Of a DNA stretch of 64,000 bases, positions 1 through 39,130 are shown one piece after another. Positions within the stretch are counted from its first letter, which is position 1, and the number at the start of each line of letters is the position of its first letter. Below the pieces are notes generated by a model, which was given only the letters and a program-made list of their open reading frames with translations, made no database searches and was not told the origin of the DNA. The stretch covers positions 1-64,000 of the forward strand of contig BPJZ01000001.1 of the NCBI GenBank assembly GCA_026004875.1, given 5' to 3'. The position numbers were made by a program, and so were the translations under genes. The DNA comes from Candidatus Poribacteria bacterium. GTDB taxonomy: Bacteria; Poribacteria; WGA-4E; GCA-2687025.

Positions 1-4
1 CGCC

Positions 5-101
5 CGTTGATAGCCTACCTATGAGGGATTGAAACCATCTTCTTAATGAACGGCCTGTTTGTCAACGCCGCGTTGATAGCCTACCTATGAGGGATTGAAA
101 C
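5..101 (+). CRISPR. 3' (leader-distal) end of a CRISPR array: two identical 31-nt repeats (5-35, 71-101) flanking one 35-nt spacer (36-70, catcttcttaatgaacggcctgtttgtcaacgccg). The array continues upstream of the window.
   Basis: Exact repeat CGTTGATAGCCTACCTATGAGGGATTGAAAC occurs twice 66 nt apart, and a third time at 5035. The 3' ...GGGATTGAAAC resembles the 8-nt crRNA 5'-handle of Cas6-processed type I-B/III repeats, so the + strand is the transcribed strand. The first repeat base (30 versus 31 nt) is ambiguous. Confidence 0.85.
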
Positions 102-144
102 GGGGTGTCCGAGAGGGGATTGATGATGCCCGTTATCTGGAGCT

Positions 145-177
145 GCTTCGACGCAAGCGTCCCGATCGAGTCGAAGC
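145..177. other. Hairpin just downstream of the array end: 8-bp stem GCTTCGAC/GTCGAAGC with a 17-nt loop.
   Basis: Perfect inverted repeat at 145-152 and 170-177, read directly from the sequence. Confidence 0.4.
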
Positions 178-346
178 GCTCCTTGGGGACATCCCCCCTT
201 ACAGCTTTCGGATTGAGGAGTATTGGACTCGCGAGACGGTGTGAGCTTTGACGCCTGGCGCTGGCAGGTGGCGCGAGAAATTCTCAGAGTGGAAGACGAA
301 CCCGCCCGCTGAGTTGAGTACCTTCCCATTGCGCTTGAGGGCGCAA

Positions 347-373
347 GTAGATAGCCTCTCTAATAGAGAAAAC
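347..373 (+). repeat. Degenerate CRISPR-repeat-like relic (GTAGATAGCCTCTCTAATAGAGAAAAC).
   Basis: 10 of the first 11 nt match the repeat start GTTGATAGCCT, and it ends ...AAAAC. Overall ~60-65% identity with about 3 nt deleted. Same orientation as the array, 245 nt downstream of the last intact repeat. Weaker repeat-like fragments sit at 113-123 (gaggggattga) and 208-218 (cggattgagga). A short match of this quality is expected about once by chance in 64 kb. Confidence 0.3.
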
Positions 374-395
374 CGATGGATAAGGAGGTTCCAAA

Positions 396-1342
396 ATGGG
401 AGTCATCCAGAAGGTCGCTTCCCTAGGAGCAGGACTTGCTTTAGCTGGAGGGTTGAACCTCTTGGCAGTCGGTCAGCAGTTTGTAACCGACGGATTAGTC
501 GGTTACTGGAGCATGGACGCGGTTGTCGGGGATCTTCTGTCGAAGACGCCGTCGGCGAACACCACGGAACGATCGTGGACGGAGCGCTTGCGATCGCCCA
601 GGGAAAAATTGGAAACGCCCTCCAGTTCGACGGAAGTGGAGTGCACATCAGAGTTGCCGACCCGGAGGCGTTCGTCGCCAACGCAGATTTCACTTGGTGT
701 GCCTGGATTAACACCTCGAACCCTGGAGGGGGTATTCTTGCCAAGACCTCACCGGATCCCGGGTCCGACGTTCAGGGCGCCAAAACGCTCTTTCTTGACG
801 GAGGGCTTCTCGTCTTCGACGTCGGGTGGGTAGGAGCCGTAGAAGGGGTCACTCCCGTAGCCGACGGGAGATGGCATTATGTTTCAGTGACCGTCACGCT
901 GGGAGGTGCCGCAGACACCATTCAGTTTTACGTAGATGGGGCCCTGGACGCTCAAGGTCAACTTAATGTAGATCAATTCCCCGAGGAAGGATTCCCCATT
1001 CATATCGGTCTGGACCCTCGAGTTCCTGGCGAACCGATCTCAGTTCCGTTCACCGGTCTTATCGATGAAGTCGCCATTTACGATCGGGCGCTCTCGGAGA
1101 ACGAGATCGCCAACAATGCGGCTTCGACCGCAGGGCCGGCCTTGGCAGTAGGCCCCAAGGAAAGTTGGCAACCGTGTGGGCTCGGTGGAAAGCGTACTAG
1201 CCCAGGATCCACACGTGTCCAGGTGTGGACGCACCTGGACACGTGTGGCGCACTTGAGGGTCGGGTTGCGATATGGGACGAGCGCACGGTTAAACATCCG
1301 TCGGATTCCCCCATCGACCAACTGGGCGATCCAACGCCTTAG
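396..1342 (+). CDS. Secreted LamG (concanavalin-like lectin/glucanase) domain protein. One frameshift near 535-545 moves it from the frame of ORF 396..833 into the frame of ORF 248..1342.
   Basis: AAGGAGG RBS at 382-388, 7 nt before the ATG at 396. N-terminal signal-like segment MGVIQKVASLGAGLALAGGL. The stretch GLVGYWSMD...then...SVEDAVGEHHGTIVDGALAIAQGKIGNALQFDGSGVHIRV...DGRWHYVSVTV...IQFYVDGAL matches the LamG consensus (YW-FDE...G.A....G..GNAL.FDG...V.V) across the frame junction. The C-terminal 60 aa after the LamG domain look non-protein-like. Confidence 0.6.
1209..1248. repeat. Perfect 17-bp inverted repeat with a 6-nt spacer (CCACACGTGTCCAGGTG tggacg CACCTGGACACGTGTGG).
   Basis: Reverse complement of arm 1 (1209-1225) equals arm 2 (1232-1248) exactly. 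Each arm carries a CACGTG core. It lies in the doubtful 3' tail of the LamG ORF. Confidence 0.8.
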
Positions 1343-1586
1343 AAGTTGGTCCCCTCCGGGGAAGTATGCGGTTCTTCGCACTCGATCTTGGGTAGCCTGT
1401 TTTTTCGGTCTCATCCAATGCAAAGCGTCAGCTTTACCCTTCTCTGTGTACACAAGTTGTCTGGCGTAATTACCCCCCGGAGAACCTGGGGGCCTCAACA
1501 AGTAGAGTCGTCCACCGATTCAACGCCCTGACCTGTCTCGCTCCCTTTTTCGTGCTCGGGTAGGCCGAGACAATAGGAAAATCAAG

Positions 1587-3651
1587 TTGAAGCGCAGAGA
1601 AATTTCTTCTTCCTTTCGTCTCTTCTGGGTGTACTCGATTGGATTCTTCCTAATCGTTTCTAATGCCTACTGGCTTACAGTCACCAGTGAGCTAATGGAG
1701 CCACAAAACCTATTAACGTTTGTTTCACTATTTTTCAGCGCATTATTTTCACTGTTTTTTGTTATTGTACTCGATCGATTGTGGAAAGCAATCACGCCGT
1801 TCAATGGACTTTCCCCACAAGAGACGCTGGGGCTGTACATCATGACCGTCATGACGGGGACGGTAGGCGGTCATACACTCATGACGTTTCTGATCGGTAC
1901 AATCTCTCATCCTTACTGGTTCGCAACACCTGAGAACGAATGGGCAAATCTTTTTTGGGCATATATTCCCAAAGGATTTACTCCAGACCCGCAGGTTCTT
2001 AAAGGGTATTTTTACGGCCGGTCGACCTTATATACTTGGGAACACCTTCGAGGTTGGCTAGTTCCTGTTCTTTTTTGGACCTTCTTTATCGCCCTCATCT
2101 GGTGGCTCTTCTCTGTCTGAACACTTTGATCCGCGCGCAGTGGACCGTTCGAGAAAAGTTGGCTTACCCGATTATCCAGCTCCCCGTTGCCATGGCTACC
2201 GGCGGAGGAGCCTTCTGGCGTAGCCGAGCGATGTGGAGCGGATGTCTCTTCGCAGGGATGCTGGAGCTTCTGGTCGGACTCCATTATCTTTACCCCTCGA
2301 TCCCTGCCCCTCGACTGACGGGTTTGTCCCTCGAACCGCTCTTCGCGAGAAGCCATGGAACACCATCGGTTGGGTTCCAGTGAACATCTTTCCCTTCATC
2401 GTAGGGCTCACCTACTTCATGCCGCTAGAGCTCTCCTTTTCTGCATGGGTCTTTTATCTTTTGGAAAGGCGGAGCGAGTCATTCGGCTGGGCATGCTGGG
2501 CCATGTCGAGCTTTACGCTTCAGAACGCGCCGGGGGTGCTTGGATTGCGGTAGGTTTATTAGCACTCTGGGGCACACGTCGCCACCTGTGCGAGGCCTTT
2601 CGAAGGGCGCTCTCCCACGAGGTGAGGGAGGAGAGAACCGATCCTCTTAGCTACCAAACTGCCCTCTTTGGCTTCCTCGGTGGTCTTCTTCTGTTCTCTT
2701 TTCTCTCGTTTAAAGCGGGGATGACGGCGGGAGCAATCGGCGGTTTTATCTGTCTTTACCTTGTAATGAGTATCGGCGTCGCGCGAGTAAGAGCCGAGTT
2801 TGGTCCTCCCTCTCACGAGATCCTCGCTCTCGACCCAGGGCGGTTAATGACCCTCTTGTGGGCACTCGCCGACTGGGCTCGGCTAATCTGACAGTACTTT
2901 TCTTTTTATTACTGGCTGAACCGGCTCAATGTAGCCCATCCCATGCCCAACCAGTTAGAGGCGTTCAAGATCGCAGAGCGAGTTCGGATTCCTTTACGGC
3001 GTTTAGTCCCCTTAATTCTGATCTCCACAGTGCTAGGAACGCTCGCCTCTTTTTGGGCCTATCTGCACCTGATGTATCACGTGGGGGCCCTAACCGTACA
3101 CGGCTACTTGATCGGGGATCGGCGAGGAGACCTTCGGCGAGCGACTCCAACGGTGGTTGAACAATCCGGAACCTCCTAACCGGCTGCCCTGAAGTCTTTA
3201 GGGTTTGGATTTCTGGCCACCTGGGTTCTCTACCTCTCCGTCAGCGATTTATCTGGTGGCCCCTCCACCCCATTGGATACGTGATGACGGCCCGCCACCT
3301 GGGGTGGATTGGCGGACTTCTGGTTCTCCGTGTTTCTTGGGTGGGGTAATTAAGGCCGTCTTCCTTTCCCTTTTTGGGTTCCGCGCACACCGGACGGCCA
3401 TTCCCTTCTTTCTGGGTCTGGTAATGGGTGACTACGTCATGACAGCCATTTGGAGCCTGATCGGAGCGATCTTCGGCACTCCTGTTTTCGTTCTCTGGTC
3501 CCCTAAGAGAGCCTCCCCCCCGCGATCTATCTTCTACTCACAGTGCTGCCCAAGACAAGGCGGAGTTGATCGTAGAGATCCTCTGGGGGGTCGAAGGTCT
3601 CCATTTCGATCGGCTCTCGGCGAACCGTGCTGGCATAAAGAGCTAGGATGA
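1587..3651 (+). pseudogene. Large polytopic membrane protein of unknown family, broken into at least five frame-shifted pieces (ORFs 1587..2120, 2036..2383, 2233..2553, 2355..2891, 2943..3179, 3205..3651). The 5' part forms a low-GC (~40%) island.
   Basis: Consecutive ORFs on the same strand in rotating frames, each encoding Trp/Phe-rich transmembrane segments (e.g. FWVYSIGFFLIVSNAYWLTV, WVPVNIFPFIVGLTYFMPLELSFSAWVFYLL, FLGLVMGDYVMTAIWSLIGAIFG). GC content of 1560-2150 is about 40%, against about 65% for the window. Confidence 0.5.
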
Positions 3652-4581
3652 CCTTCCACTCATGGAGCGATTGTTCCAGATTCGTTCCCGGCACCTTGGA
3701 GTCGTCCTCTATCCAGTCGAGCATTGCTCGGTGGAAGGCCGTTTGTGCCCGGAGGTTGTCTGCGGCCCACTTTTCGTGGCCTTCAAACGGGGCCCCCTCG
3801 ATCCCTGCTGGGGAGGACGATCTCCCAGCGACCGAATTCTTCCCAATTCACGCGCCCTTGAGTGCAATAGGCCGCTACCCGAACGTGTTGATAATCCGTC
3901 GCGGGATCTCCGGCCTTGGGAGACACGTACCCGGTCGTCCAGAGCCCTCGAACCCCGTTTTCAAACACCAAATAGGCAGCGGTTGTTTCTGGTCCAGAAT
4001 GACGGGCTTCCAGTTCTCCAGGACCGGTCGCAGTGCCGTAAACGCTCTTCACGCGAGCGTCCCCGTTCAGGGACATGGCGTAGTTGAGGATATGGGTTCC
4101 TTGTCCGGAGACGTTCATCCCACAAGAGAGATCCAGAAGGATCACCGACCCAAGCCGTCCCGAGCGCACCGCTTCCTGACAACGCACCAGCGCAGGATAC
4201 CATCGGAATTGATGGCAGACGGCAAACTTCGTTCGGGTTTGTTCTTGAAGGGCGCAAAGCTGACGCCAGTCTCTCACCTCGGTCGCAATAGGCTTTTCAA
4301 CCGTGCAGGCAGGGACGCCAAGCTCGGAGACTAGAGTCATCAGTTCAACACGAGTGTCCGGCCAAGTGACGATATGAACCAGATCCGGGCGCTCTGCGGA
4401 GGATCATCTCCTCCGCGCTGGCATAAGCACGGAGACCAAACTCAGCAGCAACCCGATCTCGTCGTGTTGGCGTTGGAGCACAACACGCGACGACCTCCGC
4501 ATCAGGAATCTCTTCGTAGGCGCGAATGTGGGCGCGGCTACGACCTCCGCACCCGATCACCGCGACGCGGTATTTAGCCAT
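3527..4581 (-). CDS. Gfo/Idh/MocA-family NAD(P)-dependent oxidoreductase with two frameshifts.
   Basis: N-terminus MAKYRVAVIGCGGRSRAHIRAYEEIPDAEVVA carries the Rossmann GxGxxG motif. It continues into ORF 3783..4340 and a C-terminal piece in ORF 3527..3724. RBS GGGAGAA lies upstream of the ATG at 4581. Confidence 0.6.
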
Positions 4582-5034
4582 TGTCAGTTCTCCCTATCCC
4601 TTGGGGTCTGAGGAAACAGATCACGACCCCAACCTCCCGGAAGAATGAAGCAATTCTTGATAAAAAGAAATAGCAAACAGTGCCGAAGTGCTTCAAGGCT
4701 CCGCAGAACAAAAAGCCCAGTCTCAGAGCCGTCGCCCTGTCAACATGAGCAAGCCAGAAAATTCCAGCTGGATACATCGAGGGGCACTCTTCGCCTATTC
4801 GAAAATCGAAACTCCCACTTCCTTCCTGTTGTACCCGATGATATAAGTTGAGAGATCCTCAACAGAGGAGCGGAGAATCGGATGGACTAATCTACCACAG
4901 GAGTTCCACGGGTGTAGGGGCCGGCTTACTCCGCCACCGCTACAGAGTTAGTACAGTTCAAAGTTGTTCGAAGAGCAAAGGAGAACCCAACGAATGAGGA
5001 CGCTCATCACCTTTCTTGGGAAACAGCTGCGACG
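4582..5034 (+). promoter_or_regulatory. AT-rich (~45% GC) non-coding stretch immediately upstream of the orphan CRISPR repeat; candidate CRISPR leader.
   Basis: No credible ORF; the only one listed (4645..4851) is low-complexity. Composition stands out against the 65% GC background. It abuts the repeat at 5035 in the transcribed orientation. Contains a hairpin GGGGTC-n16-GACCCC at 4604-4631. Confidence 0.3.
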
Positions 5035-5065
5035 CGTTGATAGCCTACCTATGAGGGATTGAAAC
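5035..5065 (+). CRISPR. Orphan single CRISPR repeat, a perfect copy of the array repeat, with no neighbouring repeat within ±70 nt.
   Basis: 31/31 identity to the repeats at 5-35 and 71-101, in the same orientation. No second copy on either side at spacer distance. Confidence 0.8.
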
Positions 5066-5074
5066 TTCCATTAA

Positions 5075-5106
5075 GGTTCTGGAGCTCCCAGGACCGTTTT
5101 TTTTTT
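5075..5106 (+). terminator. Rho-independent terminator: 8-bp stem GGUUCUGG/CCAGGACC (one G-U pair), 5-nt loop, then U10.
   Basis: 5' arm 5075-5082, loop AGCTC at 5083-5087, 3' arm 5088-5095, T-run 5097-5106. Starts 10 nt after the orphan repeat. Confidence 0.7.
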
Positions 5107-5259
5107 CGAAATGCGCCTGCGGGGGAGACAAGACACCCCGAGACCCCCCTCCAGCCCAAGCCCAGAGCCCGAATAGACACAAATTCTGTTGTCCCAGGCA
5201 TGAGGAAGGGGTAGCATCCTTTCGCTCTTGCAGGCGTCGGTTTTCAGGAGGGGAAGAGA

Positions 5260-6548
5260 ATGCCAAACCAGGAAAAGCTCGCCCTTTACGGCGGTCCCAA
5301 GGCGGTTCCAGAACCGCTCCCCTCAGGGGCCGTCGTTCGAAGCCTGATCGGACGAAGAGGAGGTGGAGGCGGTCGCCGCCGTCCTGCGCTCCGGGAAGCT
5401 GTTCCGCGACGAGGACCACAAAAACAGTCAGTGCACCCAGTTTGAACGGGAAGCCTGTCAACTGCTGGGCGTCTCCTACGGGCTGCTGGTCAACAGCGGC
5501 ACCAATGCCCTCATCGCTGGGCTGATCGGGCTGGGAATTGGTCCCGGAGACGAAGTGATCGTCCCAGCGTACACCTATATCGCGACGGCGGCGGCGGTGG
5601 TGGCGGTCGGTGCGGTGCCGGTCATCGCCGAGATCGACGACTCGCTGGGCCTGGACCCGGAGGACGTCCGCCGAAAGATCACGCCCCACACCCGATGCAT
5701 CATTCCGGTTTCACATGCAGGGGGTCCCCTGTCGCCTGAACGCCCTGCTTCAGATCGCCGAGGAGCACCGCCTTCTGGTCTTGGAGGACTGCTGCCAGTC
5801 CATCGGAGCTCGGTACTTCGGGCGAGATGACCGGCAGCTTCGGGCACGCGGGAGCGTGGAGCCTGAACTACTACAAGGTGATCACCTGCGGCGAGGGCGG
5901 GTTGGTCTTCACCAACGACTATCGCGTCTTCGAGCGGAATCGCCTACTGCGCCGACCCCGGCCTGCCGATGTGGATGCGCGCCTACGCTCCCTGACGAGG
6001 TCCCCACGCTCGAGGAGCCGTTCAGCTACCTCTGCCTGCGCGGGGAACGAGCTGCTCGCGGCGATGCTGCGCGTCCAGCTCCGCAAGATGGAGCCGGCCC
6101 TTGCCCGGACCCGACGTGTCAAGCGGACCATCCGAGAGCCACCTGAACCCCCCGCGCCACTATCAGCTCCAGCATCAGGACGACCCGGAGGGGGACTGCG
6201 GCATCAGTCTGGCGCTGATCGTCGAGTCCCAAGCGGCGGCCAAGCGGTTTGCGGAGGCCCTCTCCGCCGAAGGAGTCCCGACCGGCACCGCCCACAATGA
6301 GGGCTTCCCCGATCGGCACATCTACCGTTACTGGGACTCGATCCTCCAGAAGCGGGCGCCCTCATCCGGGGCTCAACCCTTGGCGGCACCCGATGTACTC
6401 CGGCAAGGTGGAGTACGACCCGGAGATGTGCCCCCAAACGCTGGACATCCTGAATCGAACCCTGCGGATCGGCCTGAACGTGCGGATGACCGAGGAGCAC
6501 GCCCGACAGATCGCCGCGGCAATCAATAAGGTGGACGCTGCCCTTTAA
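5260..6548 (+). pseudogene. DegT/DnrJ/EryC1/StrS-family PLP-dependent sugar aminotransferase carrying at least four frameshifts.
   Basis: Pieces in ORFs 5260..5445, 5363..5830, 5610..6146, 5827..6300, 6101..6529 and 6249..6548. Motifs include ...SDEEEVEAVAAVLRSGKLF..., GDEVIVPAYTYIATAAAV, GSFGHAGAWSLNYYKVITCGEGGLVFTND and a C-terminal ...EEHARQIAAAINKV. Confidence 0.65.
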
Positions 6549-6560
6549 CGAACCCAGCGC

Positions 6561-7669
6561 TCAAATGAAGTCCGACTTCGTGTCGAACAGCGCCCGGTCC
6601 AGCGGGTACCAGGGGAGATAATCGGACTCCAAGGGGAGCGTCTCTCCCGTCTCGGCGGACTGGTAGCCCCGGAACAGAATCTCGTGGACGTGGAGCTGTC
6701 GCCGACCGGAACAGGTCGGTTCGACCCCCTCTCGGATACACCGGACAAAGTGCTCCATCATGTTTTCCGGATTCGGGTCGGCGGGAAACCCGAAAGACAC
6801 CCTTCCAGCTGCGCCATTCGTCGGGTTGAGCGCTCGGGATCGGTGCGGTTCCGTCCCGGCGCTGGAGGAGCACCCGCCCGTCGCCAGGAAGGACGATCGT
6901 CCCCTCGCGACCGAAGACGGTCGTCGAGTTCTCCACAAAGGCGGTGCCCCATAAGGACCGAACCACCGCGACCTGTCCCTCAGCGAACTCGATCAACAGG
7001 GCGACGTTATCGTCCACGTCGGAGAGCACCCGCTTCCCACCGCCGACAATCCGGTTGGGGATCAGCGTGTTGACCAATCCGGTAACGCGCTCGGCACGCC
7101 CCAGCAGACTGATCAGTCGGCTGATCGGATAGACCATACAGTCCAGCATCGCGCCGCCGTGGGCGATCGAACGATCGTAGTACCAGTTGTCGCGCGGGGG
7201 TCCGGGAATGTTCAAGCAGGCTTCCGCGCCGGTCAACTTGCCGACGATCTCCTCCCGGAGGAGCCGTTGTGCAGTGAGAATCGAACCGGTGTTGTCATAA
7301 GGGAGCTGCATATAGACCACACCGGCTCGATCGGCGGCGCGCACCATCGCAACGCAGTCCTCCCAGCGGGTGGCCATCGGCTTCTCGTTGAGGACGTGGA
7401 TCCCTCGTTCAAAAGCGGCCAAACAGACTTCAGCGTGAACCGAATGGGGCGTCGTGACGACCACCGCGTCGGGTCGCTCCCGATCCATCATCGCCTGGTA
7501 GTCGTCATAGTAAGCGGGAACGGAGAACTCCTCGGCTTTCCGGCGAGCGTTCTCCAGCCGACGGGCCACCGTGGCCACAAAGCGCACTCCCCGCCATCGG
7601 CTGGGCCATCCGAAAGAAGCGATCGCTGATCTGTCCGCTGCCGACCATTCCTAAGCGCAGTTCCGACAT
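6561..7669 (-). CDS. Gfo/Idh/MocA-family oxidoreductase with two frameshifts (near 7590 and 6800).
   Basis: N-terminus MSELRLGMVGSGQISDRFF after a GGAG RBS (start 7669). It continues into ORF 6523..7587 (VVVTTPHSVHAEVCLAAFERGIHVLNEKPMA) and the C-terminus lies in ORF 6561..6938 (FPADPNPENMMEHFVRCIREG). Confidence 0.65.
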
Positions 7670-7738
7670 AGTGGTTACTCCTTGGTGGTCTCACTTTTGT
7701 GGTATCGTATCCCAGAGAAGGGAATTTTCCGAGAGAGG

Positions 7739-8779
7739 ATGTCATTACCGAAGGGAGCGCTGGCCGTGAGCAGCACGCCGCCGATTCGAACGACCGTTGT
7801 CGGCAGCTATCCGGTCCCCGAATGGCTTCGGGTCTACCCGACGGAGCCCCACCTGCGCGATGCCACGCTAGTCGTTCTGAAGACGCAGGAGCTCGCCGGA
7901 ATCGACGTGGTGGCCGACGGGGAACTGTACCGCTTTGATGTAAACCATCCTGAAACGAACGGGATGATCGACTTCTTTATCGGCCAGATGGACGGGATTT
8001 CGCGTCGGATTTCCGTTCGCGACCGGCGGCGCTTCCAGCAGGACCCGGAGCTGCGCTATCGGGCGGAGCCGGCCGGCGTGGTCCACGGACCCATCGGCCC
8101 CCGGCGTGCTCGACCTGGAACGACATTACCGCCGTGTCCGCGCGCTGACCGATCGGCCCTTGAAGTTCACCGTCACCGGCCCGCATATGCTTTCCAAGGT
8201 GCTGCTGAACGACTACTACCCGAACCGCGCCGAACTGGCGATGGCGATCGCCGAGGTCCTCCGGGAGCAGGTGCAAGAGATCGACGCCCGAGATCGTCCA
8301 ACTGGACGAGGCGAATATCACCGGCCATCCCGAAGAGGGGGAATGGGCCGCCGCCGCGATCAACCACGTCCTGGACGCCATCCCTGGCGAAAAGGCGGTC
8401 CACCTCTGCTTTGGAAACTACGGCGGCCAGACGGTCCAAAAAGGAGGAGTACGCCCGCCTGCTGCCGTTCATGAACGCCCTCCATGCGGACCATCTGGTC
8501 CTGGAGTTCGCCCGCCGGCAGTACCGAGAGCTAGAAGTCCTCTTGGACCTGAACCCGCGCGTTCGAATCGGTCTAGGGGTGATCGACATCAAGGACAACG
8601 GGATCGAAACGCCGGAGACGGTCGCTGCCCGAATCGAACATGCCGCGGGCGTGTTGGGCGTCGAGCGGATCGCCTATGTGCATCCAGACTGCGGCTTCTG
8701 GATGCTCCCCCGGAACGTCGCCGACGGAAAAATGCGCTCGCTGGTTCAGGGACGAAACCTCTTTCTGGGGAAGTCCTAA
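7739..8779 (+). CDS. Short-form cobalamin-independent methionine synthase (MetE C-terminal-like, UroD/MetE superfamily) with three frameshifts.
   Basis: TTVVGSYPVPEWL...LKTQELAGIDVVADGELYR... in the frame of ORF 7682..8779, then the frame of ORF 8106..8474, then a third frame (IVQLDEANITGHPEEGEWAAAAINHVLDAIPGEKAVHLCFGNYGG), then back to ...LVLEFARRQYRELEVL...AYVHPDCGFWMLPR. RBS GAGAGAGG before the ATG at 7739. Confidence 0.6.
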   Translation: MSLPKGALAVSSTPPIRTTVVGSYPVPEWLRVYPTEPHLRDATLVVLKTQELAGIDVVADGELYRFDVNHPETNGMIDFFIGQMDGISRRISVRDRRRFQQDPELRYRAEPAGVVHGPIGPRRARPGTTLPPCPRADRSALEVHRHRPAYAFQGAAERLLPEPRRTGDGDRRGPPGAGARDRRPRSSNWTRRISPAIPKRGNGPPPRSTTSWTPSLAKRRSTSALETTAARRSKKEEYARLLPFMNALHADHLVLEFARRQYRELEVLLDLNPRVRIGLGVIDIKDNGIETPETVAARIEHAAGVLGVERIAYVHPDCGFWMLPRNVADGKMRSLVQGRNLFLGKS

Positions 8780-9867
8780 CCCCGCGAATGTCCTGGCTCC
8801 AGCAGTACCTTGATGGAGGATTCGGCGGAGCGTACCAGCTCCAAACCAGCCTGGAACTCCTCCAACGGTAGCCGATGGGTGACGATCGGCGTGACGTCTA
8901 TCCTGCCTGAAGCGATGAACTCGATCGCGATCGGATAGCAGTACGGTCCCAGATGGGAGCCGTGGATGTTCAGCTCCTTGGTGTCACCGATGATCGTCCA
9001 GTCCACAGTCACCGGCTCGCGCATAACGCTGAACTCAACGAAGGTTCCCAGCTTGCGAATCATCAGCAGCCCCTGACGAACCGCTTCAGGATGGCCCGTT
9101 GCTTCAATGTACACGTCGCAGCCGTACCCTTCAGTCAGGTCCAGCACCCGTTGGATCACATCCTCTTGGCGCGGGTTCAGCGTCAGGTCGGCGCCAAGCT
9201 GGCGAGCCACTTCCAAGCGTCGGTCGTTCAGGTCCACGGCGATCAGAAGTCCGGGGTTCTTGAGGCGTGCCGCGGCGATCATCCCCAGTCCCAGCGTCCC
9301 CGCGCCGGCGATGACTACCACATCGCCAAATCGGATCTCCCCGCGCTCGACCGCGTGGATCGAACAGGCCAGCGGCTCGATCAGTGCAGCCTTCCAGGCC
9401 GGAACCTCCTGAGGAATCCGATGGACGATCGCGCGAGCGGGGAACTTCATGTATTCCGCCCACCCGCCGGGAACCGGACGCCGAAACCCGTAAATGTCGT
9501 GCTGTTGGCACATCCAATACTGCCCCCGACGGCAGTAGCGGCACTCCCAACAGGGGACAATCTGTTCGGAGATCACCAGGTCCCCCACCTGAATCCGATG
9601 GCGCTCGGCGGCCCCTTCGCCCAGCGCCACTACCCGCCCGACAAACTCGTGCCCCGGAACGATCGGCGGCTGAGCGTACCCCTGTCGGTCCTCGTCGCCC
9701 CAGAAGAGCGGAGCGCCGGTGTAGCACTTCACGTCGCTAGCGCAGATGCCGCACGCTTCAACGGCCACCAATACCTCCCCCGGCCCCACCTCCGGAACGG
9801 GGATCATCTCCAGGCGGTAGTCGTACGGTCCGTAACAGACGACCGCGCGTTGCTTTTCAGGAAGCAC
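8776..9867 (-). CDS. Zinc-dependent medium-chain alcohol/polyol dehydrogenase (threonine/sorbitol dehydrogenase-like).
   Basis: ACGICASDVKCYTG...PGHEFVG...CRYCRRGQYWMC zinc-binding motifs and GAGTLGLGMIAAARLKNPG Rossmann motif. Intact 363 aa. Confidence 0.8.
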   Translation of the reverse strand: MLPEKQRAVVCYGPYDYRLEMIPVPEVGPGEVLVAVEACGICASDVKCYTGAPLFWGDEDRQGYAQPPIVPGHEFVGRVVALGEGAAERHRIQVGDLVISEQIVPCWECRYCRRGQYWMCQQHDIYGFRRPVPGGWAEYMKFPARAIVHRIPQEVPAWKAALIEPLACSIHAVERGEIRFGDVVVIAGAGTLGLGMIAAARLKNPGLLIAVDLNDRRLEVARQLGADLTLNPRQEDVIQRVLDLTEGYGCDVYIEATGHPEAVRQGLLMIRKLGTFVEFSVMREPVTVDWTIIGDTKELNIHGSHLGPYCYPIAIEFIASGRIDVTPIVTHRLPLEEFQAGLELVRSAESSIKVLLEPGHSRG

Positions 9868-11275
9868 AATCTTCTCCTTCTTTCAGCGCAAGTTGTTCTG
9901 CAGCGGGAACTGCAGCAAAGAGCAGCCAAAACGGCACGTTGAAGAGGTCCGTAGCGCTGAACGACTCCACGACGAGATGAGCTAACGACGCCACTTGAAC
10001 CGCAAGCAACCCGGCCACCCACCCGTACCACGTCGGCTGAGCCTCCAGCCGCCGGAGCAACCGCAGGCCGTAAAGAAACAACGCCCCGTTCAGCCAAAGC
10101 CAGCTCAGCGCGCCAAACAACCCCGTTTCGGCGAGAATCTGAAGGTGCTCGTTGTGCGCTCCCATCTGGTAGAATCGGTTGGCCCCAAGAAACGGCTCGT
10201 TCGGGTAGCTCAGCGCAAAGGAGCCGTACCCTGCACCAAAAAGCGGATGCTCCGCGAACATCAGCAGCGCATAGCCCCACCGGAGCAGCCGGGTCTTGTT
10301 CGAAGCGTACTCCGGATCGAAGACCGTCTCCAGACGCGAAGCGATAGTCTCCCGGACCGGTCCGATCAGCAGCGCCAGACAGATCAGCACCGCTGCCGTT
10401 CCCATAAAGGCCCACTTCCGCCACCGCCCCGCCTCCGAACGCAGCAGGAGCAAAAAGCCTAACGCGATTAACAGCGACAACCACGCGCCTCGCGACCAAC
10501 AAAGAAGCATCGCGCCGCCAAAAAGCACCAACCCCAACCCGACCCACCCTCGATCGTAACGCGGATTGAACAGCACCTGCGCCAGAAGAGGCAGGAGAAA
10601 AACGGTCAGGTAAAAACCGTAGATCGCATAGTTGGTGAACAGTGTCCCGAGGTAGGCTGTTGTATGGGCAAGGTTCTCTCCCCGCCAAACCATCCACACC
10701 GACTGCACCAGAGCCGCCACGACGCCTGCGGCCGTCGCGACGCCAACCGTGCTTGAGAAGACGCCCCGCCGACTCAGCAGCGAATAGGCCGGCAACGGCA
10801 GAAGCACAAACGCCAACGCCCGCAGCGCTCCCTTGCCCGACTCGTAAGGAAACGCCGTGAACGGCAGCGAAGCGAGGATCGAAAGGGCAAAAGCGTACAG
10901 CGGCCAACGAAGCGGATAGGCCGCAATCCGCTCTCCTCGGGCTGCCACAACGAGACGATCCAACAGGTAGGCCCCTACTAGCGCGGCAACGACCGGCTCG
11001 GAGGGAACCTGAAGCTCCGCGCGATTGGGAAGAAAGAACCGAAATGAAAACGGAAGCGCGCCGACCAGCAGCCACAACAACACCTGCGGAAGCCCAACAG
11101 CGGCCGCGACGATGAGCACGGCAAAGACCAGCGGCGCCGTGTAAGTGTACAGCGAACGCCCTACCAGCCACCCCACCGTGGTGGCCAGCAGCCCGCCCAC
11201 AAGTACTAAGCTAAGCTCCCGCCCCTCCCTCCGAAAGGCCTCAGGAGCCCGCATCATCTCTGTTCGGCACCTCAA
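9857..11275 (-). CDS. O-antigen ligase / Wzy-like polymerase (Wzy_C domain) polytopic membrane protein.
   Basis: At least 10 predicted TM segments. Wzy_C-like region WSRGAWLSLLIALGFLLLL...AHNEHLQILAETGLFGAL. Overlaps the ADH stop by 11 nt, so it is in an operon. The overlapping Arg/Ala-rich ORF 9804..11171 is rejected. Confidence 0.7.
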   Translation of the reverse strand: MRCRTEMMRAPEAFRREGRELSLVLVGGLLATTVGWLVGRSLYTYTAPLVFAVLIVAAAVGLPQVLLWLLVGALPFSFRFFLPNRAELQVPSEPVVAALVGAYLLDRLVVAARGERIAAYPLRWPLYAFALSILASLPFTAFPYESGKGALRALAFVLLPLPAYSLLSRRGVFSSTVGVATAAGVVAALVQSVWMVWRGENLAHTTAYLGTLFTNYAIYGFYLTVFLLPLLAQVLFNPRYDRGWVGLGLVLFGGAMLLCWSRGAWLSLLIALGFLLLLRSEAGRWRKWAFMGTAAVLICLALLIGPVRETIASRLETVFDPEYASNKTRLLRWGYALLMFAEHPLFGAGYGSFALSYPNEPFLGANRFYQMGAHNEHLQILAETGLFGALSWLWLNGALFLYGLRLLRRLEAQPTWYGWVAGLLAVQVASLAHLVVESFSATDLFNVPFWLLFAAVPAAEQLALKEGEDCAS

Positions 11276-12284: not shown

Positions 12285-12309
12285 CTGCGCAGAGATCCCT
12301 TCCTCTGGA

Positions 12310-14048
12310 TTAACGAATGTGCAGTTGATAGGGCATCAGAAAAAACGTCCGAAGCCCCTCCAAGAACCGGTACGCCGACCCAAGCCGTCGGAGCGCTCCG
12401 CTCTCCCTGAGTGAGGCGCGGAGCCAGCCGCTTTCGACCAGCTCCTCCAGGGGTGAGGATCGGGGCGGCAGCTCCCAAAGCTGAAACAGATGCGATCTAG
12501 AGTAACCGGCGCTTTCCTTGGCAAGTTCAAAGGCCCGCAGGAGGTCCCCCTCCTCGTCGGCGAGGCCGTTCCGCACGGCCTCTCGACCGGTCCACACCTG
12601 CCCCTGGGCCGACCGCCTCAATCTCCTCCAGGGAGCGGTTCCGGCTCTTGGACGCCTTCTGGAGGAACTCGTCGTAAACGTTCCGGATTAGCGCCTGGAG
12701 CCGCTCCCGCTCCGAATCGCTCAGCGGTCGGTCGGACCAGATGGTGGCGTTTTGGCCACGGGTGAGCACCTGCTGCCGGATGCCGAGCTTCCGGTAGAGT
12801 CCGGTCAGCGCAAATTTACCGCCCCAGACCCCGATGCTTCCCGTCAGCGTTGCCGGTTCCGCAACGATCCGATCGGCGGCCATCGCCACGTAGTAACCAC
12901 CTGAGGCGGCGACACCCCCCATCGAGGCAATTACCGGCTTCTCCCGCCGGGCCTGTTGAACGGCGTTCCAGATCAGATCGGAGGCGAGAGCGTCCCCGCC
13001 GGGGCTGTCAATCCGGAGGACGATCGCTTTAACGGCGTCGTTTCGGCGGGCCTTCTCCAGCGCCTCTACGATCCGCTCCGCGGGCGCCCAATCGCTCAGT
13101 CCCAGCGGGTCCGCCTCGCGGCCCGGAACGATAATCCCTTGGATGTAGATTAACGCGATTGTCTCCCGATCGGAGGGGGGGCTCGCCGGGCGTCCTCATC
13201 AGCTCCCGAAGCAGTTCGAGAACTCCTGGCCCCCCGTCTCTCTCGACTCGATCGGCAATGTAAGTCGGTTCGGCGCTCGCGGAGACCAGCGATTTGCTGA
13301 CGGTTGGGAGCGCGTCGGGGTACTCTAGGCCGTCCACCAGGCCGCGCTCTAGGGCCTCCTGAGCGGAGTACGGACCGCCGTCAATCCACCGGATCACCTC
13401 TTCGCGGCCTCGGCCCCGCGCCAGCGCAATTCCTTCAACTAGCTGATCAAACAGCTCGTCCAGCAGCCGGTTGAGCATCGCCTCGGCCTCCGGAGAGAGC
13501 CGCGTCCGGGTGTAGGGCTCCGCAGCGCTCTTGTAGGCCCCTGCCTGGACCAGCTCCGCCTGAATGCCCAACTTGTCCAGCGTCTCTTTGAAGAAAAGCA
13601 CCTCGGCCCTCAGGCCGATCAAGTCCACCGTCCCGAGCGGCGAAAGAAGCACCCGATCCGCATGGGCAGCGAGCAGATAGGTCGCGTTGTCGTAGTAGTC
13701 CGAATAAACGATCACCGGTTTGCCCGTGGCCCGGAACGCCTGAACGCTCCGAGCAAGCGACTGGGCCTCCGCTAGAGAAAGTCCTCCTCCGTCCGCTCGA
13801 AGGACCACGCCAAGCGTCTGAACGTCCTCGGCGGCCAGCCGGAGCAGTTGCTGTAGGTCGAGGAGCCCCGAGCGCTCAGAGGAGAAGCCGTATAACTCGT
13901 TTGCGCGGCCTCCAGCGCTCCGATCCAGATAGATCTCAACGACGCGCGGCGCGCTCTGTTTCTCCCCTCCGCCGGCACACCCGACCAGCAGGAGCGTTCC
14001 GAACGCGATCCCCAGCCATATGCCCACGTGCAACCCGCGTTGCCGCAT
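12310..14048 (-). CDS. sppA: Signal peptide peptidase SppA (two-domain 67K type) with two frameshifts.
   Basis: Lipoprotein signal MRQRGLHVGIWLGIAFGTLLLVGCAGG. It continues through ORF 12527..12922 (MGGVAASGGYYVAMAADRIVAEPATLTGSIGV, the ClpP/crotonase-fold SppA catalytic-region motif) and ORF 12310..12621. Confidence 0.65.
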
Positions 14049-33066: not shown

Positions 33067-34548
33067 TCAGCTCTCCCAAGAGGGCGGCGACCCGATCCGC
33101 AGGGCCCCGTTCGTCGGAAGAAAATCCCCCCACCGGATCAGTCGGAGCATCAAAGCCAGTCCTGCATAAAGTACAGCCCCGGTCGGAAGACTTCCCCAGA
33201 TCGGCCAGCTCCGGACGAGGGAGAAAAACCCGTTGCTCAGCAACCCCAGCAACAGCAGGCGCGTCCAGACACCGACGCCAGGAACCGGTGCCAGCTTCCA
33301 GTGGATATACCCTGTCCCGACGAGAACCAGGAACAATTCGCTCAAGCCAGCGGCCCATCCCGCGCCCCGATGGTGGTAACGCCCCATCAGCAGAGCTCCG
33401 GCCAGAAGATGCACCCCAGTCGCCCCGAGCATCAGCAGAAGGACGGCTCGACCCCGATTGGCCGCCCGGAGGACGTTCGAGACCACCATCGTCAAAAAAA
33501 GCAGCCCTCCAAGGCCGCTTAAGCTCTGAAAGGCCGCGTCAATCGTCCCAGGCGGGTAAGCGTCCAGTTGGTACAGCAGCCGGATCAGCTCCGGCCCAAC
33601 CCAATAAAGCAGCGTCGCCGCGCCCAACCCCAACGTCGCCATCGCCCGAAAGGAGCGCTCCACCAAACGGCGGAGCCGCTCCCGGTCCTCCGGTGTCCCC
33701 CCAGGACGGGAGTAGTCGGCCAACCGCGGAAAGAGAGCGCTGAGCACTGCCCCTGGAAGGATAGCCAGCGCTGTGATCCAACCGTAAGCGGTTCCATAGT
33801 AAGCCACCACCAGCGCCCCCCCGTTCGCTCCAACGCTCCAAAAGCACCGGACCCATCCGGTAATAGGCAATGTTGACGAAGTTAGCCGCGACAAAGGGCA
33901 ACATCGGCACCAGAAGCGCCCGCCATTCACTCCACCGAAACCGAGGCCCGTACCGGGCGAACTGAGCGCTCAACAGTCCAGCCACCAACAACACGTGCAG
34001 CGAGGAGGCGCCGACCATTGTCCCACAGATCCACGTCGCCGAGCCGATCCCCAGCACCAGCCCCGCCACCCCCCCACCCCGGCAACGATCGCCCGTTCCA
34101 AAAGGACGCCCAGAGATTCAAACTCCATCCGTTCCCGCGCCCGGAAGAAAAGGTGAAACGCCCCGGCGATCTGGTCTAAAGCCGACGCGATGGCCGTAAG
34201 GACCACCAACCGACGCAGCAGCGGAGGATAGCCGTTCGCCCACGACCAAGCCAGCGCAGCGCCCAAAACAACAACCCCAGCGCTCAGCCGCATTCCCAAC
34301 GCTGCGCCGAACGTCCGCGCCTCCTCCTCCGGACGAAGCAGCAGCTCCCGCACGAGAGGGTCCCGTAACCCCAGTTCCGCCAGAGCCCCGGCCATCCCCG
34401 CCACCGACACCGCAACAAAATAAAACCCCAACTCCTCAGGAGCCAGGTAGCGCGGAAGCAACAACAGCAGGACCAGGCCCAGCGCTCGCGCCCCAAGATG
34501 AGCGCTCAGGAGAAAAATTGCGTTTTCCCAAACGGAACGGCGTCGCAT
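33067..34548 (-). CDS. Wzx-like polysaccharide flippase (MOP superfamily) with two frameshifts.
   Basis: Three consecutive ORFs (33970..34548, 33539..34069, 33067..33930) in different frames, all polytopic with the polysaccharide_biosynthesis pattern (LLSAHLGARALGLVLLLLLPRYL...). Confidence 0.55.
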
Positions 34549-36347: not shown

Positions 36348-37577
36348 TCAAAGCCGAGCGGCCCGCTCGCGGAGGGCCTCCAGGCGCTCCAAGATCGCGC
36401 GGGCGTTCATGACGCCTTTGTAGACGTAAAGCCGTGCCGGGAGCTCCGGGTCCAGCACCTCTTCGCTGACCCGAAGCCGGTCGCTGACGGCAAAAAGGAC
36501 CGGCACACCAAGTCCAGCTTCGACCAGCTCCACCCGCTTCCAAACGGCCTCCCGGCTCCAGTACCCGAGGACCTCCAAGTAGGCGCAAAAGCCGCTCTCC
36601 CGATGAGTAAACGCCAGGTCTGGAACGCAAAGTCCTACCCCCGGCAGGTCGAGCAGGTCTTGCGCAACGGCCACCTCCCACGGAGCGCCCAGCGCTCGAA
36701 ACTGCTCCATCAATCGGGCCACCTCCTCCGGCAGGTGAAGGGACTCCTCCTCAGAAGGCCCCCGTTGGCCGCTCCCTTCCAGTCGGAACCGGTACGGAGG
36801 TCGGTCCCGATCCCATCGTACCAACGCCTCCAGCTCCCATCGCCCGCAGGACTCCAGGACGGGGAGCAGCAGGGCTAACTGCAGCCCATACTTGACCGTC
36901 GCCTGAAAAAGGCTCAACGGCCCGTCAATCTCGATCCGATAGCCTCCCTCCGGCTCCCGATTGAGACGGTACAGCAACCGATGGAACTTCAACCGGCGAA
37001 AGAAGACCCGATAGCCTCCGGGATCGGCGCAGGACAGCCGAACCACCACCTTCAACGCTCGAAGCAACACCGCTTGCCGTTGAGCCCGATCGTAGACGTC
37101 CAAGAGCGCCTCTGCCCCGATCGGGTCGAAATGGGTCAGGCGATAGTTCTCCCTCAAATCGGCATAAAGCCCCTCCTCCAGCCGCTCCGGAGTGGTCCCC
37201 AGCTCCTCAGCAAGTTCCTGGAGGAGCCGCTTCCGATCGAACCGCTCCAATTCCCGCCGAGCCGCCGCTGCGCGTGCGAAAAGACGCCTCCGAAGCGCGC
37301 GCGGTTCCCATCCTTCGACTACGCCGACCATCTCAAACGTGCATCGGTCCTCGATCAGCTTCTGGAGTCCCCGCATCCGCTTGTAGTCGGTCTCTCGGAA
37401 GGACAACGACTCGCAGGCTGCGCGAAACTCCCCTTGAGTCCGACCCAGGGAGGCCTCCGCCAGCTCGATCAACTGCCTTGCAACGGGAAGCAGCCGCCGA
37501 CGCTCCGCCGGACTCAGCGGAACCACCTCCAGCGTTCCGCCCCGACGCCGTACCCGGACCAGATCAGCGGTAAGCAC
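36348..37577 (-). CDS. Bax1-like DUF790 endonuclease, the partner nuclease of XPB helicase.
   Basis: 409 aa. Overlaps the stop of the upstream helicase gene by 14 nt. The size and the MLTADLVRVRRRGGTLEVVPL... N-terminus are typical of archaeal Bax1/DUF790. Assignment rests on family recognition and synteny, not a search. Confidence 0.55.
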   Translation of the reverse strand: MLTADLVRVRRRGGTLEVVPLSPAERRRLLPVARQLIELAEASLGRTQGEFRAACESLSFRETDYKRMRGLQKLIEDRCTFEMVGVVEGWEPRALRRRLFARAAAARRELERFDRKRLLQELAEELGTTPERLEEGLYADLRENYRLTHFDPIGAEALLDVYDRAQRQAVLLRALKVVVRLSCADPGGYRVFFRRLKFHRLLYRLNREPEGGYRIEIDGPLSLFQATVKYGLQLALLLPVLESCGRWELEALVRWDRDRPPYRFRLEGSGQRGPSEEESLHLPEEVARLMEQFRALGAPWEVAVAQDLLDLPGVGLCVPDLAFTHRESGFCAYLEVLGYWSREAVWKRVELVEAGLGVPVLFAVSDRLRVSEEVLDPELPARLYVYKGVMNARAILERLEALRERAARL

Positions 37578-38958
37578 GGTGCTTCCTCCGCCGAAGGCTC
37601 ACGAACACTTCCGAAGTCTCACTAGCGATCAGCTCGTACAGCACCGCCTGTTTCCCCTCCCGTCGTCGCAGCAGTCGGCCCAGTCGCTGGACGTGCTCCC
37701 GAACCGATCCGCTCCCCGAAAGCACAATTCCCACGTTTGCTTCGGGCAGGTCCACCCCTTCGTTGAGGACCTTGGAGGTGGCCAGGATGTTCACCTCCCC
37801 TTCGCCAAACGCCCGAAGAATCTCAACCCGTTCGCTCGGCGGCGTCTGATGGGTAATCGCCGGGATCAAAAAGCGGCGGGACAGCTCATAGGCGGAGGCG
37901 TTTCGCTCGGTGAACAGCAACACGCGGTCGCGCCGATGCCGACGAAGAAGATACTCGACGTAGTCCAGCTTGGAAGGTGCTGCGAAAGCCAACTCCCGCT
38001 GACGCTGATAGGCCTTCATCGCCCGACGGCCCTCCTCGCTCAGCGAAGAGAGCCGGACAAACTGGCTCCACCCCTTTGGGCTATTCATCACGATTCCGTA
38101 CCGGTCCACAAACGCCCGATAGGTGCGCCAGGCCGCCTCGTACTCCGCTCGCTCCTCTGGCGTCAGCTCGACCAGAACCTCCTCGACGATGTAGTCGGCC
38201 AGGTACTCCCCGGCGAGCTCGTCCACCTCCCGGCGGTAGACCACCGGCCCGATCAGGTGGTTCAGCGACTCGTGGCGCCCGTCCGCCCGTTCCGGCGTGG
38301 CGGTCAAGCCCAACCGAAACGGCGCCAACGAAGCTAACGCCGCAAAGGAGTAAGTCTCCCCCGGCAGATGGTGACACTCGTCAAAAACGATCAGCCCAAA
38401 GCGAGCCCCGAGGTGCTCCATATGGAGATGGGCCGAATCGTACGTCGAGACGGTGATCGGGCAGACCCGATGCTCTCCGCCGCCCAGCACCCCGACCTCC
38501 CGACGAAAGCCGGTCTCCAGAAGCTCATACCACTGAGCAACCAGGTCAAGCGTCGGCGCGACGACCAACGTGTCCCGTCGCGCGCGGTCGATGGCCATCA
38601 GCGCCGCATAGCTTTTGCCTGCACCGGTGGGGAGAACGATCACTCCGCGGCCCCCAGCGCGCCACCAGGCCTCAACCGCCTCCTCCTGGAACGGTCGAGG
38701 AACCCGACGCACCTGAAGGCCCTCTTCGAGGACGCCGTAGGCCCGCGCCTCGTCCCGATAGGGGACCCCCTCCCGCCGAAGCGCCAGGACGATCGGCGCA
38801 TAGGCCAAAGCAGGCGCTCGAAAACAGCGCGTGCGCGGATCCCAGCGGCAATCCGCCGGCAGGAGCGCCGAAAACGACTCGGCAAGCCCTCGCACCTCCA
38901 GCGTCCCCGCAACAAAACGAAACACGACGGGCGACGATTCCTCCGGCTCCGGAACCAT
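37564..38958 (-). CDS. XPB/ERCC3/Rad25-family superfamily-2 DNA helicase.
   Basis: RBS GGGGAGGGGA before the ATG at 38958. Walker A LPTGAGKSY, DECH box, SAT-like TATPER, motif VI QRLGRLLRR. An N-terminal ~100-aa damage-recognition-like domain. Followed by a DUF790 gene in the same operon, as in archaeal XPB-Bax1. Confidence 0.7.
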   Translation of the reverse strand: MVPEPEESSPVVFRFVAGTLEVRGLAESFSALLPADCRWDPRTRCFRAPALAYAPIVLALRREGVPYRDEARAYGVLEEGLQVRRVPRPFQEEAVEAWWRAGGRGVIVLPTGAGKSYAALMAIDRARRDTLVVAPTLDLVAQWYELLETGFRREVGVLGGGEHRVCPITVSTYDSAHLHMEHLGARFGLIVFDECHHLPGETYSFAALASLAPFRLGLTATPERADGRHESLNHLIGPVVYRREVDELAGEYLADYIVEEVLVELTPEERAEYEAAWRTYRAFVDRYGIVMNSPKGWSQFVRLSSLSEEGRRAMKAYQRQRELAFAAPSKLDYVEYLLRRHRRDRVLLFTERNASAYELSRRFLIPAITHQTPPSERVEILRAFGEGEVNILATSKVLNEGVDLPEANVGIVLSGSGSVREHVQRLGRLLRRREGKQAVLYELIASETSEVFVSLRRRKHRAYR

Positions 38959-39130
38959 TCTCCCCTCCCCTCCTGAGGATTGCGGGCCTCTGACCTCAAA
39001 AAGCATACCATACCGCCAAAGGAGCTCCCAGAGGCTACCCCTTGTCCCCACTGGGCGACGGTCTTATGCTCTCTCCCCGAGAGCGTGTTCGCCCTTGAAG
39101 GATTCATTTGGTCTGCTCAGGAGAACACCG

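Follow-up and report, generated by a model that had tools for sequence, protein, structure and literature searches.

In Mycobacterium tuberculosis, IS6110 interrupts the CRISPR array at the DR locus. An association of arrays with rearrangements is found in Thermotogales, for which PMC5052741 states, with reference to DeBoy et al. 2006, that CRISPR loci are located at sites of chromosomal rearrangement. Camara-Wilpert et al. 2023 (PMC10651486) described solitary repeat units of mobile elements and Racr RNAs, and their article cites an earlier suggestion that solitary repeat units let elements integrate into arrays. Regulatory CRISPR-like RNAs (CreA; crlRNAs, bioRxiv 10.1101/2024.12.27.630466) combine a repeat-like unit with a short spacer-like stretch and a terminal hairpin. 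Here, we analyze a CRISPR locus in the first 64,000 nucleotides (nt) of contig BPJZ01000001.1 (assembly GCA_026004875.1) of a Candidatus Poribacteria bacterium; this whole stretch is referred to below as the window. At its left edge, the end of an array is followed by a 4.9-kb block of DNA with foreign composition and then by a single perfect repeat, here called the stray repeat. The coordinates of all features of the locus are compiled in Table 1.

The locus resembles each of the described systems in part. (i) In Thermotogales, according to the same article, 30-nt CRISPR repeats border rearranged DNA, as they do in the window, and dispersed repeats are thought to be recombination substrates. 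However, the rearrangements reported there are large inversions between arrays in related genomes, whereas the window contains a foreign-composition block between an array and a single repeat in direct orientation, with no relative that shows the event. (ii) As at the DR locus, non-array DNA splits an array and the repeats are intact on both sides, but the insert in the window has no transposase, inverted ends, or target duplication and carries ordinary metabolic and envelope genes. (iii) In common with the solitary units that give rise to Racr RNAs, there is a single full-length repeat outside an array, and recombination of a circular DNA carrying such a unit with an array repeat, as suggested in the literature, would yield exactly the order repeat-insert-repeat. 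In contrast to those units, the insert carries no phage or plasmid gene, no promoter-like site precedes the stray repeat, and the core of the repeat is absent from viral contigs. (iv) The layout also resembles that of a crlRNA, but the repeat is usually degenerate there and perfect in the window, in which we found neither a partially complementary promoter target (in 64 kb) nor an adjacent toxin or defense gene. Most probably, the locus is an array end that underwent rearrangement, and as such it falls within a general kind that is already known. As its more specific explanation we tentatively favor an array end that was split by a block of foreign DNA, probably through recombination at the repeats, with the stray repeat and the terminator behind it as relics.

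Table 1. Features of the CRISPR locus and its immediate surroundings in the 64-kb window
Feature	Position	Strand	Remarks
First visible CRISPR repeat	6..35	+	Exact 30-nt match; array runs off the left window edge
Sole complete spacer of the window, 36 nt	36..71	+	Between two exact repeats, 66-nt period
Last array repeat, perfect	72..101	+	No degenerate terminal repeat after it
Left junction, no recognizable gene	102..395	.	47-codon frame at 102-244 without homologue
LamG_3 (concanavalin-like) gene	~396..1199	+	Pfam PF13385 (Laminin_G_3), E = 3.5e-22
Palindrome, 17-nt perfect arms, 6-nt spacer (CCACACGTGTCCAGGTG / CACCTGGACACGTGTGG)	1209..1248	.	Just past the LamG stop codon
DUF6785 + DUF6784 polytopic membrane protein gene, full length, ~635 codons	1587..3507	+	Pfam on successive fragments
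Gfo/Idh/MocA oxidoreductase gene (Gfo1), full length, convergent	3527..4581	-	Pfam PF01408 / PF22725
Noncoding stretch, 454 nt, 50% GC	4582..5035	.	From the Gfo1 start codon to the stray repeat; reading frames without Pfam match
Solitary perfect CRISPR repeat (stray repeat), in the orientation of the array	5036..5065	+	Exact match, CRISPR-DR2
Intrinsic terminator, 8-bp GC-rich hairpin + T10	5075..5105	+	Begins 10 nt past the stray repeat
DegT/DnrJ/EryC1 aminotransferase gene, first gene of host composition to the right	5260..6548	+	GC3 0.83; 8 insertions, no stop codon

The 30-nt repeat GTTGATAGCCTACCTATGAGGGATTGAAAC (43% GC, counted from the sequence) occurs in three exact copies on the plus strand (6-35, 72-101, and 5036-5065), and a search of the 64 kb that allowed up to 3 mismatches revealed no other; none is expected there by chance. 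All three copies match the Rfam family CRISPR-DR2 with 42.8 bits (gathering score, 37). A reading of the sequence alone, made earlier and referred to below as the sequence-only reading, had noted direct CRISPR repeats at both ends of the segment at 102-5034, and the second and third of these copies bear this out. The regular spacing of repeats and the unique spacer that characterize arrays are seen for two repeats and one spacer before the window edge. Degenerate repeats were found neither after position 101 nor within 100 nt of the stray copy, the best alignments in the flanks (14 to 16 of 30 positions) being at noise level. The stray repeat has the properties by which solitary repeat units are defined in PMC10651486, namely, intergenic location, a match in 30 of 30 positions, and the lack of any other copy, complete or partial, closer than 100 bp. 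No Cas family was detected among the ~50 reading frames scanned over the 64 kb; the side on which the leader and cas genes are expected lies beyond the window.

Scanning of metagenomes with the 22-nt 3' core retrieved more than 120 contigs with arrays of the family GTTnnnnAGCCTACCTATGAGGGATTGAAAC. The repeat of the window belongs to this widespread family. The complete repeat, in contrast, is rare: no species-representative genome contained an exact match to the 30 nt, and only 1 of the more than 120 contigs that share the core, L059 (Ga0256833_1007063, 7,240 bp), carries the identical repeat. This contig is made up of a leader (83 nt) and an array in which the exact repeat occurs 108 times, with spacers of 35 to 40 nt, and it may represent the same or a closely related organism. 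None of its spacers is shared with the window or targets it, and the 36-nt spacer of the window matched neither these spacers nor viral contigs. From the viral contigs, the repeat core and 24- to 25-mers of the spacer and the junctions were likewise absent. With the repeat in the ...ATTGAAAC orientation, the nonrepeat leader of L059 is found 5' of it, and other arrays of the family have a degenerate terminal repeat on the 3' side, which is the usual way for arrays of this family to end. The array in the window is thus read in the left-to-right direction and has its leader-distal end at position 101.

Solitary copies of the GTTnnnnAGCCTACCTATGAGGGATTGAAAC repeat family recur elsewhere. Truly solitary repeats of the form ATTTTTAGCCTACCTATGAGGGATTGAAAC are present in AT-rich intergenic DNA of another organism in two contigs with identical flanks (L032, 4141-4170; L039, 370-399). 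Two further contigs (L004 and L109) contain short arrays of the related repeat GTTTGTAG... that are flanked by CBM9-like and zinc alcohol dehydrogenase-like genes, which are ~30% identical to the CBM9 and alcohol dehydrogenase genes of the window; this is probably a coincidence. Contig L089, whose repeat (GTTCATAG...) comes closest to that of the window, was considered as a relative and discarded, as unrelated housekeeping genes are found downstream of its array.

In its composition, the segment between the repeats is foreign to the remaining 59 kb of the window. (i) The segment at 102-5034 has a GC content of 0.552, as compared to a mean of 0.634 (standard deviation [SD], 0.008; minimum, 0.618) in 109 windows of the same size, and is thus ~10 SD below the mean. 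(ii) Its tetranucleotide distance is 0.028, twice the maximum of 0.014 found elsewhere. (iii) The GC content at third codon positions (GC3) of the three genes of the segment is 0.43 to 0.68 (~0.58), whereas that of 18 other genes is 0.71 to 0.83 (~0.76); the latter include a second, paralogous Gfo/Idh/MocA gene (Gfo2) with a GC3 of 0.78. (iv) Across 4900-5400, i.e., at the stray repeat, the GC content climbs from 0.52 to 0.63. These data agree with the earlier proposal that a compositional anomaly supports a horizontal origin. The same reading had described an island of ~40% GC at 1560-2150. Such an island exists and corresponds to the N-terminal 180 codons of the DUF6785/DUF6784 gene (44 to 48% GC), but its minimum in 300-nt windows is 0.44 to 0.48 (1501-2100; background, 0.62 to 0.65), and the foreign composition extends over the whole segment. 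A separate mosaic origin of the low-GC N terminus was considered and rejected at the protein level, since the protein matches the same homologues to a similar degree throughout its length.

The terminator that follows the stray repeat is the top terminator-like site in positions 1 to 5400, and its hairpin is kept in the centroid fold (-13 kcal/mol). In the noncoding stretch that precedes the repeat, no sigma-70-like site was found on either strand, with the limit that the sigma-70 model may not represent the promoter type of the host, and no similarity was seen to the leader of L059 or other leaders of the family. A perfect repeat that lacks a promoter-like site and is followed by a terminator is the expected appearance of an original array end that was cut off by intervening DNA. 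The junctions read GAAAC/GGGGTGTCC... on the left and ...GCTGCGACGC/GTTGATAG on the right. No inverted repeat pairs the two ends of the segment, the CRISPR repeat is the sole direct repeat at these ends, and there is no target-site duplication. The hexamers just upstream of the repeats agree in 5 of 6 positions (CGCCGC versus CGACGC), which was taken as chance because the spacers of L059 show no conserved 3' end. The 47-codon frame next to the left junction was considered as a truncated gene, but it has no Pfam match and no match in 1.84 billion representative proteins, and it was taken as noncoding.

Three genes occupy the segment, and the families that the sequence-only reading had named (a LamG-domain gene, a large membrane protein gene with at least four frameshifts, and a frameshifted Gfo/Idh/MocA gene) were recovered. 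Profile searches placed the membrane protein in DUF6785 and DUF6784, with fragments spanning profile positions 3 to 498; once reconstructed, it is 59 to 62% identical from end to end to homologues of 641 amino acids (aa). Gfo1 is 64% identical to its homologue P0121 over 343 of 343 residues. By visual inspection, the LamG protein starts with a hydrophobic stretch that resembles a signal peptide. The palindrome behind its gene folds into an 18-bp hairpin (-43.8 kcal/mol; z = -5.45 versus shuffled sequences) without a following T-run; there is no second copy in the window. In this place between LamG and DUF6785, it may serve as an attenuator or as a site to which a protein binds. A LamG_3 gene upstream of a DUF6785 homologue on the same strand was found in two other contigs, adjoining it in L001 and two genes away from it in L002, and the LamG proteins of the window and L001 share 59 to 62% identity. 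The order LamG_3-DUF6785 is therefore a conserved unit rather than a chance neighborhood, which argues that a functional unit was moved. The loci of LamG_3 with a DUF6785/DUF6784 protein of ~640 aa are located at 6288-9067 (L001) and 5316-9562 (L002) in these distant metagenome contigs and at 396-3507 in the window. We found no paper that mentions DUF6785, and the pair may deserve a study of its own. Scans of all frames of 102-5034 against Pfam returned only LamG_3, DUF6785/DUF6784, and Gfo/Idh/MocA and thus no transposase, integrase, or phage gene; along with the repeat search, they concur with the earlier report that such genes and terminal inverted repeats are missing. Among matches with a taxonomic name, the best ones are from Candidatus Poribacteria for DUF6785, Planctomycetota for Gfo1, and Armatimonadota/Fimbriimonadaceae for the flanking DegT. 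Such names are sparse, and this change of taxa across the stray repeat is no more than a hint.

The region contains many frameshifts, which the sequence-only reading had attributed to decay of the genes carried as cargo. We counted them by frameshift-aware dynamic-programming alignment of homologues to the DNA; a codon-model Viterbi scan performed poorly in the region of 1 to 5 kb owing to the foreign codon usage, and homologue-guided alignments were used there. In four full-length genes, 22 single-base indels were verified: 2 in LamG (near 525 and 1157), 10 in DUF6785/DUF6784 (6 missing and 4 extra bases), 2 in Gfo1 (insertions at 4401 and 3815, each an extra C in ...ATC[C]TCC), and 8 in DegT, i.e., to the right of the stray repeat. 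All changes in DegT are insertions (1 per 160 nt), of which 7 extend a run of the same base as judged by eye from the contexts. Approximately 5 of the 22 sites, counted from their contexts, are at or beside GATC. None of the four genes has an in-frame stop codon, and their ~1,640 aligned codons include no truncation or larger deletion, with 59 to 73% identity over the full length. Of the marks of a pseudogene, disruption of the reading frame is thus present, whereas nonsense codons, truncations, deletions, and lost conservation are absent. Further split genes were found at 6.5 to 8.8 kb (Gfo2 and Meth_synt_2) and at 12.3 to 14 kb (an S49 peptidase in at least 3 pieces), with frameshifts reaching ~13.2 kb, whereas 8.8 to 12.3 kb is clean and 14 to 64 kb is tiled by intact long reading frames. 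Patches amounting to ~9.4 kb (1-8500 and 12300-13200) thus contain at least 29 frameshifts, as compared to at most 2 candidates in 50 kb. The latter, the only candidates beyond the first 14 kb, are near 33835 and 34070 in a MurJ-like flippase gene (33067-34548, minus strand).

Most likely, these frameshifts are consensus errors of a poorly covered or unpolished stretch that comprises approximately the first 13 kb; the patchy indels look like an unpolished long-read consensus within a partly polished assembly. Sequencing error is favored because only single-base indels occur, without stop codons, and because they ignore gene borders and the repeat-bracketed segment; neutral decay producing 22 indels would, by our own estimate, be expected to produce several nonsense codons as well. 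The decay proposed for the cargo thus did not hold, with indels as dense or denser outside the segment (8 in DegT). That the frameshifts are real, and that the block and its right-hand neighbors were recently inactivated, appears quite unlikely; such an inactivation would concern only the sequencing-error part of our interpretation. The concentration of at least 29 frameshifts in 13 kb would fit it, and slippage in short homopolymers also occurs as a natural mutation, but the intact remainder of the ~1,640 codons, the disregard of the patches for operon borders, and the one-sided homopolymer extensions in DegT speak against it. For the first ~13 kb, genes should be annotated after correction of the frameshifts, and this sequence should not serve as a basis for claiming that genes near the array have decayed. 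Errors are about as dense to the left of the stray repeat as to its right, which suggests that the same reads span it.

According to the split-array explanation favored here, the repeat that is found today at 5036-5065 would formerly have closed the array, with the terminator behind it. A block from another lineage, with the LamG_3-DUF6785/DUF6784 operon and the convergent Gfo/Idh/MocA gene as its cargo, would now part this terminal repeat from the remaining array. The likeliest route would be homologous recombination at the 30-nt repeats, in which either a circular DNA with one repeat was taken up by a single crossover or a spacer was replaced by a double crossover, and the stray repeat would be a passive relic severed from the promoter of the array. 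The compositional step at the stray repeat, the array end made of a perfect repeat, the terminator behind the stray copy, and the missing promoter-like site in front of it all fit such a split end, and they are compatible with the sequence-only proposal of an insertion into the array or a repeat-mediated recombination. A transposon or phage is unlikely as the vehicle, since there are no mobility genes and no element ends. A number of points weigh against this explanation. No related genome or contig with an uninterrupted array or an empty site was found, and we infer the ancestral state rather than observe it: a synteny search with the intact alcohol dehydrogenase gene at 8776-9867 gave 80 loci (best identity, 75%), none with the neighbors seen in the window, and the contigs of the best DegT homologues have other neighbors and no array. 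In addition, a substrate of 30 nt is very short for homologous recombination, no recognizable spacer remnant is left at either junction, the left border of the foreign DNA is out of view so that the array and its upstream DNA may share the island, the named taxonomic affinities are based on few labeled metagenome bins, and the low sequence quality here makes an assembly problem at the repeat conceivable. The more far-reaching idea that CRISPR repeats served as the recombination site through which a foreign operon was captured, with a circular or linear repeat-bearing DNA recombining with the array to leave a nonmobile giant "spacer" of 4.9 kb, is unlikely. If true, it would be an instance from nature of the integration into arrays via repeats that has been suggested for solitary-repeat elements, and arrays would be sites of gene capture. 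Provided that the junctions are real, the locus shows foreign chromosomal genes that landed or crossed over at CRISPR repeats with no transposon involved, which bears on the break-up of arrays, the origin of orphan repeats, and the exchange of array-adjacent DNA between lineages.

Several other explanations were considered. One acquired island may have brought in the 4.9-kb block together with two arrays, the visible one and a small one, the latter having since shrunk to a repeat and a terminator through deletion between repeats in the cell or through collapse of a variable array during assembly. This is possible but rather unlikely. Several arrays with the same repeat per genome are frequent, and two-repeat mini-arrays and solitary repeats of this family are known in other contigs (e.g., L085 and L032/L039). 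The 454-nt stretch of 50% GC before the stray repeat and the terminator after it are arranged as at a real array, and with the left border out of view, the array, whose repeat has a low GC content, may share the foreign composition. On the other hand, no promoter-like site was found upstream of the stray repeat, and no likeness was seen to the leaders of the family, including that of L059, whose array alone has the identical repeat; the main array has no natural degenerate end, and the abundance of errors in the consensus points to long reads, with which arrays are not collapsed. An artificial join is very unlikely. In this case, positions 1 to 5065 and 5066 to 64000 would come from different genomes or places and would have been connected via the shared 30-nt repeat. 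Assemblies classically break at arrays, the step in composition coincides exactly with a repeat, and the sequence quality of the region is visibly poor, but frameshifts are equally dense to the left and to the right of the junction, as expected if the same low-coverage reads spanned it, and the rarity of the identical repeat in metagenomes and genomes makes two carriers in one sample improbable. It is least probable, finally, that the stray repeat is functional and gives rise to a small CRISPR-like RNA composed of the 8-nt handle AUUGAAAC (from 5058), ~31 nt, and the terminator hairpin, which would either direct Cas proteins to a promoter and thereby repress it (crlRNA/CreA type) or sequester these proteins (Racr type). 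Its sequence-level agreement with the definition of solitary repeat units and a layout of repeat, short stretch, and 3' hairpin that resembles crlRNAs are in favor of such a role. Against it are the absent upstream promoter-like site, a pseudospacer (5066-5105) that has no seed match of at least 10 nt from its 5' end within the 64 kb, the absence of cas, defense, and toxin genes and of a mobile-element context nearby, and a repeat core that is missing from viral contigs.

Outside the CRISPR locus, a number of further features were observed in the window. The region of 5 to 12 kb, with genes for DegT, a GHMP kinase, Gfo, and Wzy_C, looks like a cell surface glycan cluster; such clusters often vary between strains. 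Within it, the AT skew on the plus strand reaches up to +0.56 over the gene of the Wzy_C (O-antigen ligase-like) membrane protein (9857-11275, minus strand). At 36348-39051 (minus strand), an XPB-type helicase (ResIII, ERCC3 C-terminal, and XPB_DRD domains) is directly followed by a DUF790 protein, which we take to be a Bax1-like nuclease, and the two are predicted to form an XPB-Bax1-like repair pair in a bacterial chromosome.

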